Below, in pieces: positions 17,602-19,512 of a stretch of DNA of 24,000 bases; positions within the stretch are counted from its first letter, which is position 1; each line of letters starts with the position of its first letter. The DNA is taken from NCBI GenBank assembly GCA_013166835.1, contig JABLTI010000029.1:5579-29578 (forward strand). The letters are read 5' to 3'. Below the pieces are notes generated by a model, which saw only the letters and a list, made by a program, of their open reading frames with translations, searched no databases and was not told where the DNA came from. A program made the position numbers and the translations under genes. The DNA comes from Promethearchaeati archaeon. GTDB taxonomy: Archaea > Asgardarchaeota > Heimdallarchaeia > JABLTI01.

Positions 17602-19512
17602 ATGAAATCTGTTGAGCTTATTTGCGAGAAATACGCAATTCAAAATGCATTAGAGCATGGAGAAGCACAAGTTGGTTCTATTATGAAAATTATTATGAAA
17701 GATAATCCTGAATTACGAAAAGAAGCCAACAAAGTGAAAGATATACTCGAGAAAAAAGTAGAGTATGTTAATGCCTTGAAAATAGAAGAAATACAACAAA
17801 TAGCTCAACAAAAGTATCCTGAACTCTTCAAGGAAGAAGAAGTTGCAGACACAGAGGAAGACGTTGATTTCATTAGAAAGATCATCAATGAGGATATGAA
17901 AACAGGGAAATTCGGTGGCCGAGTTCACACTCGATTTCCTCCAGAACCAAATGGCTATTTGCACATAGGTCACTCAATGTCAATTAATCTAAATTATGGC
18001 ATAGCTAAGGAATACAATGGGAAATTTAACCTACGATTCGATGACACAAATCCGGTTAAAGAAGAAGAGGAGTATGTCCAAGCAATTGTTGAAGATGCAA
18101 AATGGCTTGGAGCCAATTTCAGAGATGAAGTATTGTTTGCATCTGATTATTTTGATCAATTCTATGAATATGCTGTTCAATTAGTTAAGAAGGGATTAGC
18201 ATTTGTTGATGATCTAAGTGTAGAAGAGATTCGAGAACAAAGAGGATCTTTAACAGAACTTGGAAAGGAAAGCCCATACAGAACTAGAACAATAGAAGAG
18301 AATCTAGATCTTTTTACACGCATGAAAGATGGAGAGTTTCCAGAAGGCTCGAGAGTTCTTCGAGCTAAAATTGATATGGAGCATCCAAATCTCATGATGA
18401 GAGATCCAATAATTTATAGAATTCTCCATAAATCACATCACAACACAGGCGATAAGTGGTGCATTTATCCAACATACGATTGGGCTCACGGTCTTGAGGA
18501 TTCTATCGAAGGAATTACTCATTCTATTTGTACTTTAGAATTTGAGGTTCATAGGCAATTATATGATTGGTATTTAGACCAACTAGATGATGAAAAAGGT
18601 AAACCAATTTATCATCCCCAGCAAATTGAATTCGCTCGCTTGAATCTATCTTACCTTGTTCTTAGTAAGAGAAGGCAATTACGACTTGTAAAAGAAGGCT
18701 ATGTTAAAGGCTGGAATGATCCTCGATTACTTACAATTTCTGGAATGAGACGAGGTGGAATAACCTCTGATGCTATTCGAAAATTCTGCAAACATATCGG
18801 TGTTACAAAACGAAAGAGAATTGTGGATAGGTCTGTATTCGATAAATTTGTCAGAGATGATTTAGACGAGAGATGCCCTCGAGTAATGGGTGTGCTTAGA
18901 CCACTGAAAGTCATTATTACTAATTATCCAGAGAGTAAGGAAGAAGAGATAGTTATTCAGAACCATCCCAGAGATAAGAAGATGGGAACTCGGAAAGTGA
19001 AGTTCACTAAAACACTTTACATAGAACAAGATGATTTCATAGAAGACCCTCCCAGCGATTATAAGAGACTCGCACCTAATAAAGAAGTTAGATTACGATA
19101 CGCTAGTGTCATCAAGTGTGATAAAGTGATTAAAGATAAGAAAACAGGGCAAGTTAAAGAAATCCATTGCAGTAACCAACCAGAAAGTGAAGCAACGAAA
19201 TCAATCGGAACCATTCATTGGCTTTCAGCTGATCATGTTGTACAAGCAGAAATACGATTATATGACAGACTTTGTATTAAGGAAAATCCAATGGATGTTG
19301 AAGAAGGAAAAGATTTCACAGATTACATCAATCCTAATTCTCTCGAGGTTGTAACAGGTTTTGTTGAACCATTTATCCAGAAAGCAGAAATAGGTTCACG
19401 ATACCAATTTGAGCGATTAGGTTACTTCAATATTGATCCCATTGATTCTAAGATAGATAGTTTAGTGCTAAATAGGATCATAACCCTTCGGGATTCATGG
19501 TCGAAGAAATAA
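17602..19512 (+). CDS. glnS: Glutaminyl-tRNA synthetase (class I GlxRS, GlnRS clade) with an N-terminal appended helical domain of about 87 aa
   Basis: Close collinearity with E. coli GlnRS as I remember it: [16 protein letters not shown] (HIGH), [69 protein letters not shown] (KMSKS equivalent), [27 protein letters not shown]. 'KWCIYP' and 'CTLEF' are GlnRS-like rather than eukaryotic or archaeal GluRS-like. Confidence 0.9.
   Translation: [636 protein letters not shown]

Follow-up and report, generated by a model that had tools for sequence, protein, structure and literature searches.

A bacterial-type glutaminyl-tRNA synthetase with an archaeal GluRS-type N-terminal domain in Heimdallarchaeia

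Why does an archaeon encode a glutaminyl-tRNA synthetase (GlnRS), and why does this protein begin with a domain known from archaeal glutamyl-tRNA synthetases (GluRS)? The question is raised by a glnS-like gene at positions 17602 to 19512 (+) of a 24,000-nucleotide stretch (the window) of contig JABLTI010000029.1 from the Heimdallarchaeia genome GCA_013166835.1. The open reading frame (ORF) list, the translation and NCBIfam matches agree on a chimeric GlnRS of 636 amino acids followed by a TAA stop codon. A 2022 review states that all archaea lack GlnRS and blames this on a mismatch between the GlnRS of bacteria or eukaryotes and archaeal tRNA-Gln, which has A1:U72 and A73 and co-evolved with GatDE (PMC9499178). 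A first-pass annotation, made from the letters of the window, had noticed the two parts of the protein and suggested that it could be an informative intermediate for the origin of GlnRS. Our work indicates that the chimera is a real feature and a GlnRS with an appended domain rather than a stage in the origin of GlnRS. With moderate confidence, we favor the view that it is a working bacterial-type enzyme that was acquired by the ancestor of two Heimdallarchaeia families and had the N-terminal domain fused to it as an adaptor for A73 tRNA-Gln.

The larger part of the protein has all the hallmarks of GlnRS. Pfam matches to tRNA-synt_1c and two E/Q anticodon-binding barrels span residues 108 to 612. 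The class I catalytic (Rossmann) domain with its connective peptide (CP) insertion takes up residues 108 to 422 (17923 to 18867; PF00749, E-value 1.4e-99, and Foldseek), and the two beta-barrel anticodon-binding domains take up residues 425 to 524 and 537 to 612 (18874 to 19437; PF03950 and PF20974). The glnS equivalog model TIGR00440 is covered completely, from position 1 to 524 of 524, with a score of 659.2 bits (cut-off, 425.8 bits), while the archaeal GluRS models TIGR00463 and NF003169 stay below their cut-offs (389 versus 401.75 bits and 362.7 versus 516 bits). Model NF011291 scores 812 bits (cut-off, 681 bits) but is covered only from position 10 to 558 of 769, and because the match ends there and the protein ends at residue 636, the C-terminal YqeY part is absent. 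When the core was compared with PDB sequences, the GlnRS of Pseudomonas aeruginosa and Escherichia coli scored best (642 and 613 bits), followed by the human (438 bits) and yeast (365 bits) enzymes and, lowest, the archaeal GluRS 3AII (209 bits). The segments KWCIYP (residues 285 to 290) and CTLEF (residues 310 to 314), which the first-pass annotation had read as signs of GlnRS, are both present in the translation, as is the N-terminal stretch that it quoted. By these scores the core is a GlnRS and not a GluRS.

The residues expected of a working enzyme are also in place. A HMMER alignment to 1O0B shows that Arg30, Tyr211, Ser227, Cys229, Phe233 and Gln255 of E. coli GlnRS are retained as R111, Y292, S308, C310, F314 and Q341, that the anticodon contacts Arg341 and Arg402 are retained as R427 and R489, and that Leu136 is retained as L217. 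The HIGH signature (residues 121 to 124; 17962 to 17973) aligns with His40 to His43 of the E. coli enzyme and is invariant in both family alignments. The KMSKS-equivalent VLSKR (residues 353 to 357; 18658 to 18672) aligns with E. coli VMSKR, with S355 and K356 invariant. Across the family alignments, the mapped recognition residues and both signatures are mostly invariant. The acceptor-stem unpairing loop (residues 213 to 222, with Leu217 in the position of E. coli Leu136; 18238 to 18267) and the G36-recognition loop (residues 479 to 494, with the YKRL Arg489 in the position of Arg402; within 18874 to 19437) were assigned by alignment to the E. coli enzyme. Both loops are specific to GlnRS and are missing from archaeal nondiscriminating GluRS (ND-GluRS) (Nureki 2010, PMC2978374). 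The AlphaFold2 (AF2) model of the full-length protein has a mean predicted local distance difference test score (pLDDT) of 88.5 and a predicted template modeling score of 0.80. Foldseek superimposes it on the E. coli GlnRS-tRNA complexes 4JXZ and 1GTR with a template modeling (TM) score of 0.96 and a root mean square deviation of 1.9 to 2.0 Å, and TM scores to the P. aeruginosa and E. coli enzymes range from 0.93 to 0.96. One feature sets the core apart. The six residues DEKGKP at positions 330 to 335 (18589 to 18606) are present in the six Heimdall rows of our alignment and in none of the bacterial, Thor or Methanosarcinales-labelled rows, and within this alignment the insertion marks the Heimdall clade that carries the N-terminal domain. 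The gene product is apparently a functional bacterial-type GlnRS, as judged from its conserved residues.

The N-terminal domain (residues 1 to 77; 17602 to 17832) was delimited by its matches to archaeal GluRS N-termini, the AF2 models, conservation, and the ratio of nonsynonymous to synonymous substitution rates (dN/dS). Pfam has no credible domain in residues 1 to 93. In NCBIfam the same segment matches only archaeal GluRS models, at the N-termini of these models, with residues 3 to 85 aligned to positions 4 to 87 of NF003169 (E-value 4e-16) and a further match to TIGR00463 (E-value 5e-10). Among PDB sequences it finds only 3AII, the GluRS of Methanothermobacter thermautotrophicus (residues 4 to 71, E-value 4.6e-9), to which it is about 45% identical; its identity to the N-domain of the GluRS from its own genome is 30%. 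We also built a profile from 17 N-domains, and a search of 1.84 billion representative proteins with it gave 478 matches at an E-value of ≤1e-3. In all 32 full-length matches examined (528 to 610 residues) the domain is N-terminal, and the first ones examined run on into a GluRS-type HIGH region. The matches with a named source are glutamate--tRNA ligases of Thermoprotei, Nitrososphaerota or Sulfolobales. A word-indexed search with residues 1 to 90 was discarded; no 5-mer word of the query occurred in any archaeal GluRS, and the search therefore returned the GlnRS family alone. The similarity to archaeal GluRS N-termini is thus far beyond chance in the profile comparisons, and by this evidence residues 1 to about 80 are homologous to the general N-terminal domain of archaeal GluRS, much as the first-pass annotation had stated for the first 87 or so residues; what that annotation had seen in the sequence is thus confirmed throughout.

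Four helices are predicted in the domain (residues 4 to 19, 24 to 34, 36 to 58 and 61 to 71), with a pLDDT of 87 when it was modelled alone and of 81 to 91 within the full-length model. An acidic linker, residues 78 to 89 (17833 to 17868), joins the domain to the core. Its pLDDT falls below 50 at residues 78 to 86 and 79 to 88 in the two AF2 models, and the linker is therefore predicted to be flexible; it is also the least conserved segment of the protein, with 20 to 60% identity in the more divergent pairs. Both models agree on an N-domain that would fold separately and be tethered to the core. The additional label of the first-pass annotation, that this is a GatB/YqeY-like appendage, fared less well. 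It agrees with the literature, in which residues 1 to 85 of archaeal GluRS are named a disordered 'YQEY domain' (Nureki 2010, PMC2978374), but our searches failed to confirm it. None of 28 N-domains had a Pfam GatB_Yqey or YqeY match (PF02637, PF09424) in hmmscan, and hhalign aligned the N-domains to an alignment of GatE/YqeY tails only weakly (probability 3.8%, E-value 0.011, 33 columns), pairing just the G-x-A-x-x-G-x-V-M helix and the helix that follows. Foldseek found no PDB match for the N-domain model with a pLDDT of 87 (best E-value, 7.7), since the domain is disordered in 3AII. The families PF04558 and PF04557, which make up the N-domain of eukaryotic GlnRS, have no match in the chimeric GlnRS at an E-value of ≤1 and are present in the eukaryotic GlnRS that we retrieved.

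Where in the archaea did the N-domain come from? A weak tree of 82 columns, which names no donor, places the GlnRS N-domains in a loose grouping (support 80) with GluRS N-domains of the 'KYPE' type from the Heimdall families f6 and f3 and apart from the GluRS of their own family. Divergence within the genus is mosaic. In the pair L017 and L018 the cores are 94% identical (synonymous divergence, dS, 0.32) and the N-domains 65% (dS 2.7), and the pair L016 and L017 has the reverse pattern, which suggests that the segments for the N-domain and the core have recombined.

The genome to which the window belongs comprises 260 contigs with a total of 3.56 Mb; its completeness is 85% and its contamination 6.8%. 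The closest homologues of the chimera have 636 to 657 residues and are 64 to 94% identical over the full length, and those with a named source come from Heimdallarchaeota, Heimdallarchaeaceae or the 'Asgard group'. The genome contains a separate archaeal GluRS on another contig, two gatD/gatE loci and three tRNA-Gln genes of archaeal type, and no GatB was found in it above the cut-off. The archaeal host that the first-pass annotation had suspected is borne out by these observations. When the chimeric protein was searched against 400 genomes of the Asgard phylum, full-length matches (residues 1 to 636, 61 to 75% identity) occurred only in two families, f1, to which the window belongs, and f3. 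The same architecture was found at 29 loci from 29 other genomes, including the closed single-contig genomes G015 and G016. The GlnRS of family f6 matches from about residue 80 onward (53 to 59% identity), and all other families yielded only archaeal GluRS (29 to 38% identity), which is also present in most genomes with GlnRS. In all 31 family loci that we read from the start, the same Met codon begins the protein and the N-domain is well conserved. The dN/dS (method NG86) is 0.08 to 0.29 for the N-domain, in the pairs for which it could be computed, and 0.06 to 0.09 for the core. No in-frame Met codon lies between M32 and M99, so that a product consisting of the core alone would lose a conserved helix.

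Public records obscure the domain. The NCBI proteins P0061, P0063 and P0065 are products of the same genes as our loci L024, L033 and L044, where the N-domain lies in frame upstream, and hence their starts were called too late in the database. Four further shortened public Heimdall records look similar. NCBI names P0012, P0026, P0032, P0061 to P0063 and P0065 'glutamine--tRNA ligase/YqeY domain fusion protein', although these proteins have no YqeY domain at the C-terminus; with the NF011291 match stopping at position 558 of 769, this name for the Heimdall proteins is misleading. A GlnRS labelled 'Methanosarcinales', P0085, was dropped as evidence for archaeal GlnRS. It is encoded at L279:390-3608 on a contig of 3.8 kb, where the next gene downstream is a bacterial-type GluRS with an Anticodon_2 domain, and the contig is probably a mis-binned bacterial one, judging by this neighbor.

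What, then, is the origin of the core? We compared it with 77 named bacterial GlnRS from many phyla, the f6 GlnRS and a eukaryotic set (Dictyostelium, Acanthamoeba, plants, Euplotes and others) that was reached via a eukaryote-like seed from a viral-collection contig, using Asgard GluRS as the outgroup that roots the tree. A quick tree had 143 rows and a careful one 82 rows (LG+C20+F+G4 with posterior mean site frequencies, PMSF). Both separate eukaryotes and giant viruses from Bacteria plus all archaeal GlnRS (99 in the Shimodaira-Hasegawa-like approximate likelihood ratio test, SH-aLRT; 88/98), and the core groups, as it scores, with GlnRS and not within GluRS. The proteins with the N-domain form a single clade (100/100) within the bacterial radiation, which is poorly resolved. 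The f6 proteins and a Thorarchaeota sequence form a second one (100/100) elsewhere among the Bacteria. In 36 diagnostic columns, one residue is common to at least 70% of Bacteria and a different one to at least 70% of eukaryotes; here the N-domain family has the bacterial residue in 30, the eukaryotic residue in 1 and another residue in 5. On average, the window protein shares 57% of its residues with bacterial sequences, 43% with eukaryotic ones and 33% with Asgard GluRS, and the core ranges from 49 to 63% identity to bacterial and from 39 to 46% to eukaryotic GlnRS. That a bacterial GlnRS was imported and then fused to a domain of the host type is the simplest and most likely reading of these data, in which the direction of the transfer is a deduction from the trees.

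For the way in which the enzyme works, the tRNA-Gln genes are the most informative clue. All three tRNA-Gln genes of the window genome follow the archaeal pattern, with A1:U72, the discriminator base A73 and a CCA that is encoded in the gene. BLAST with these tRNAs across the class gave mostly f1 genes, and the data for the other families come from the loci around glnS and from targeted searches. A73 occurs in 11 of the 12 distinct tRNA-Gln sequences of f1 and in 10 of the 11 of f3, and in the closed f3 genomes G015 and G016 BLAST with f3 tRNA-Gln queries found only a tandem pair with A73. In contrast, in f6, which has the bare GlnRS, a pair of tRNA-Gln genes (UUG and CUG) with A1:U72 and G73 adjoins glnS in all four loci that carry such genes, and the Thor contig, also with a bare GlnRS, has a G73 UUG and CUG pair about 1.3 kb from glnS. 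Both f6 and Thor have a separate A73 tRNA-Gln(UUG) elsewhere. The two kinds of tRNA-Gln that accompany bare GlnRS are found at L208:2383-2572, at L206:291-478, in L266 (closed genome G067) and at L277:8980-9171 and 12503-12578. G73 is an identity element for bacterial GlnRS. The presence of both kinds suggests, from the gene sequences, that genomes with the bare enzyme keep separate tRNA sets for the direct and the indirect route. Linkage of glnS to tRNA-Gln genes was seen in f3 and f6 and is absent from the window's genus; the window itself has no tRNA gene over its 24,000 nucleotides.

Some f3 genomes have, beside glnS and the tRNA-Gln genes, a third gene, tRNA-Gln-like, with the anticodon UUA, A73 and CCA (L025:1138-1212(-), L026:1171-1245(-), L030:1171-1245(-) and L043:2229-2302(+)), with A1:U72 or, in L043, A1/A72. 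Such a tRNA would read the stop codon UAA. Because TAA still ends glnS in L025 and L030, there is no wholesale recoding.

GlnRS did not displace the indirect route. GatE is retained in 80 of the 83 genomes of the class, which rules out the loss of GatDE where GlnRS is present, and hence GlnRS was added to the indirect route and did not replace it. Family f1 has two GatE paralogues of about 640 and 430 bits (G000:C137 and G000:C149 in the window's genome). Family f3 has only a divergent GatE of about 400 bits with a barely detectable GatB_Yqey tail, and f6 is mixed. The canonical gatE of the window genome (L007:795-2679(-), which is G000:C137:5955-7779) is split into ORFs of 397 and 208 amino acids by a frameshift or stop codon in an A-rich stretch, and the orthologue is a single frame of about 650 amino acids in most genomes of the genus. 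Either the assembly is wrong at this point or the gene broke recently.

We hypothesize that an ancestor of the two Heimdallarchaeia families acquired GlnRS from Bacteria and that the imported enzyme gained the helical N-domain of archaeal GluRS, of about 77 residues, by gene fusion, with the acidic, disordered linker of about 12 residues joining the parts. The core would activate glutamine, read the (C/U)UG anticodon and open the 1:72 pair. The N-domain would serve as a cis-acting, tethered helper that raises the affinity or productive binding of the enzyme for tRNA-Gln with A1:U72 and A73 and without G73, and the chimera would work alongside the retained archaeal GluRS and GatDE. In yeast GlnRS, a GatB-like N-domain raises the affinity for tRNA. 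Our proposal, an N-domain that adapts the bacterial-type core in cis to archaeal tRNA-Gln, builds on the contrast between A73 and G73, the literature on the identity mismatch and a precedent in Deinococcus radiodurans, where the YqeY tail of GlnRS, on a flexible linker, enhances the affinity for tRNA-Gln only in cis (PMC1865053).

A number of observations weigh against this proposal. The bacterial donor differs between the two trees, in which the sister of the N-domain clade is Ignavibacteriota/Bacteroidota in one and a Planctomycetota sequence in the other. The approximately unbiased (AU) test rejected neither a common clade for all archaeal GlnRS (p 0.34) nor bacterial monophyly without the archaeal GlnRS (p 0.19), and it marginally did not reject the grouping of the N-domain family with eukaryotes (difference in log likelihood 59, p 0.083). 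In the trees, Asgard archaea acquired GlnRS twice independently, a history that we do not claim, given the first of these values. With 13 K/R and 16 D/E residues the N-domain is slightly acidic, which is unusual for an RNA-binding module, and the domain has no established function in archaeal GluRS and is disordered in 3AII. The pattern of tRNA-Gln has exceptions, G73 in the tRNA-Gln(CUG) of L025 and L026 and U73 in L258, and the contrast between N-domain with A73 and bare enzyme with G73 comes from just two independent GlnRS clades.

Could the chimera instead be an artefact, created by chimeric assembly or contamination or by an internal start that leaves the N-terminal 88 codons untranslated? 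The contamination of this metagenome-assembled genome and the downstream starts of P0061, P0063 and P0065 would fit, but the latter are genes with an in-frame N-domain, no Met codon is available between M32 and M99, and an artefact would have to recur at 29 loci in 29 other genomes. The occurrence in two families and in closed genomes, the conserved start and the dN/dS of 0.08 to 0.29, which reflects purifying selection, together show that the protein is neither an assembly chimera nor decaying, and we regard an artefact as extremely improbable. Another possibility is a surviving intermediate on the way from an archaeal or eukaryote-line GluRS to GlnRS, with the N-domain as an ancestral part. 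The domain order is the same as in archaeal GluRS and the AU test that joins the family with eukaryotic GlnRS is marginal; however, the core groups with Bacteria in the rooted trees, in the diagnostic columns (30 bacterial against 1 eukaryotic) and in mean identity, the derived GlnRS loops are already in place, and only two families of a single class have the chimera. Moreover, the N-domain is far nearer to the N-domains of GluRS than the core is to GluRS cores, which points to different histories of the two parts. The intermediate proposed in the first-pass annotation is thus very unlikely, nor does the chimera look ancestral to the eukaryotic enzyme. A transfer in the reverse direction or a deep branch, with Heimdall GlnRS as the sister of all bacterial GlnRS and Asgard archaea as source or conduit, draws on the AU value of 0.19, the near-polytomy of the bacterial backbone and an identity of the window protein to Bacteria (57%) that is lower than that among Bacteria (63%). 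Against it, the maximum likelihood trees nest both archaeal clades within Bacteria, bacterial GlnRS occurs in many phyla while the archaeal forms amount to three families of one class and a Thor sequence, and two derived traits, the fused domain and the insertion of six residues, are peculiar to the clade. We consider this alternative improbable, and a basal position of the N-domain GlnRS is unlikely from its sequence relationships. Slightly less probable still is the joint proposition, left by the AU values of 0.19 and 0.083, that the N-domain GlnRS stands at the base of bacterial-type GlnRS or beside the eukaryotic enzymes. If this were true, an Asgard lineage near the eukaryotic stem would already have had a dedicated GlnRS with a GluRS-like domain order, and the classic story of a GlnRS transfer from eukaryotes to Bacteria would need an Asgard step.

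The main rival to an adaptor concerns the function of the N-domain, which could be a module for docking to other proteins, toward GatDE in a transamidosome, EF-1alpha or a synthetase complex, to channel substrates or to keep the two routes to Gln-tRNA from interfering with each other. A net acidic domain that archaeal GluRS widely carry at their N-terminus would suit this role, as would the retention of GatDE in 80 of 83 genomes and the two GatE paralogues of f1, and a transamidosome of archaeal ND-GluRS and GatDE is described in the review mentioned above (PMC9499178). The tRNA-Gln position 73, in which the two Asgard GlnRS clades differ, points to the tRNA instead, and the appended domains of characterized GlnRS, the YqeY domain of Deinococcus and the N-terminal domain of the yeast enzyme, all act on tRNA. 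We therefore rate docking as possible but rather unlikely, and continue to favor an adaptor for archaeal tRNA-Gln fused to an imported enzyme.

How does the chimera compare with known synthetases? With bacterial GlnRS (E. coli GlnS 1GTR/1QTQ/4JXZ; P. aeruginosa 5BNZ) it shares the HIGH and VLSKR signatures, the unpairing loop including the Leu, the YKRL-containing G36 loop and the residues of the glutamine pocket; the core is 50 to 53% identical to the solved structures and up to 64% identical to metagenomic bacterial GlnRS. It differs in the 77-residue N-domain and linker, the insertion at residues 330 to 335 and the archaeal host, and its presumed tRNA-Gln substrates have A73, whereas those of bacterial GlnRS have G73. 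Archaeal ND-GluRS (M. thermautotrophicus 3AII; NF003169/TIGR00463) has the homologous N-domain in the same place before a class Ib core and beta-barrels, but the core of the chimera, with an identity of only about 33% to the cores of Asgard GluRS, has the unpairing and G36 loops that ND-GluRS lacks. The GlnRS of D. radiodurans (2HZ7; NF011291) is likewise a bacterial-type enzyme with a flexibly tethered helper domain from the indirect pathway to Gln-tRNA; there the domain is a C-terminal YqeY of about 215 residues, here it is N-terminal, of about 77 residues and of archaeal GluRS type. Eukaryotic GlnRS (yeast Gln4 4H3S, human 4YE6) also links an N-terminal helical domain to the GlnRS core, but that domain has 190 to 250 residues and matches PF04558/PF04557, matches that the window protein lacks, and the eukaryotic core forms a separate clade. 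The second Asgard clade (Heimdall f6 and Thorarchaeota) shares the bacterial-type GlnRS in genomes with archaeal GluRS and GatE and differs in having no N-domain, in forming a separate clade (100/100) and in the G73 tRNA-Gln near glnS. Elsewhere, a Myxococcota GlnRS has a C-terminal tail that by eye resembles Trbp111/EMAPII (L111:4681-5061(+)), and the C-terminal tail of a Gemmatimonadales GlnRS aligns to GatE/YqeY tails (L114:4705-5295(+)); these are further cases of GlnRS gaining helper domains.

The surroundings of the gene are of interest for its expression. A TATA-box-like element, TTTATTAT, was read from the sequence at 17570 to 17577 (+), about 28 nucleotides 5' of the ATG, and its position would fit an archaeal promoter and a near-leaderless mRNA. 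Downstream, a gene for a tetratricopeptide repeat (TPR) protein of 347 amino acids (19497 to 20540 (+)) overlaps the last 16 nucleotides of glnS, and co-transcription is therefore possible; a TPR gene follows glnS in two genomes of the same genus as well (L017 and L018). Farther away lies an ORF of 1664 amino acids (9441 to 14435 (-)), about twice the usual length of UvrA. It has several ATPase modules of ABC/UvrA-like type, together with UvrA interaction and DNA-binding domains, and also a zinc finger of the DnaJ type.

A 2024 preprint mentions, in passing, GlnRS beside cox genes in Hodarchaeales and Kariarchaeaceae. In the library searched, no paper on Asgard archaea with GlnRS or glutaminyl-tRNA seems to describe the chimera, judged by titles and abstracts. 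Public annotation, for its part, misnames the Heimdall GlnRS and often truncates the N-domain.

In summary, the Heimdall GlnRS bears on the evolution of synthetases and on why archaea lack GlnRS, and has no direct bearing on the origin of eukaryotic GlnRS. It would be another, possibly independent, recruitment of a helper domain by GlnRS, after the N-domain of the eukaryotic enzyme and the YqeY tail of Deinococcus. The identity barrier between archaeal tRNA-Gln and GlnRS seems to have been crossed in two ways within one archaeal class, by an enzyme with the N-domain of the host GluRS together with A73 tRNA-Gln, or by a bare enzyme together with adjoining genes for G73 tRNA-Gln. The hypothesis of such a barrier thereby becomes accessible to experiments with defined constructs.

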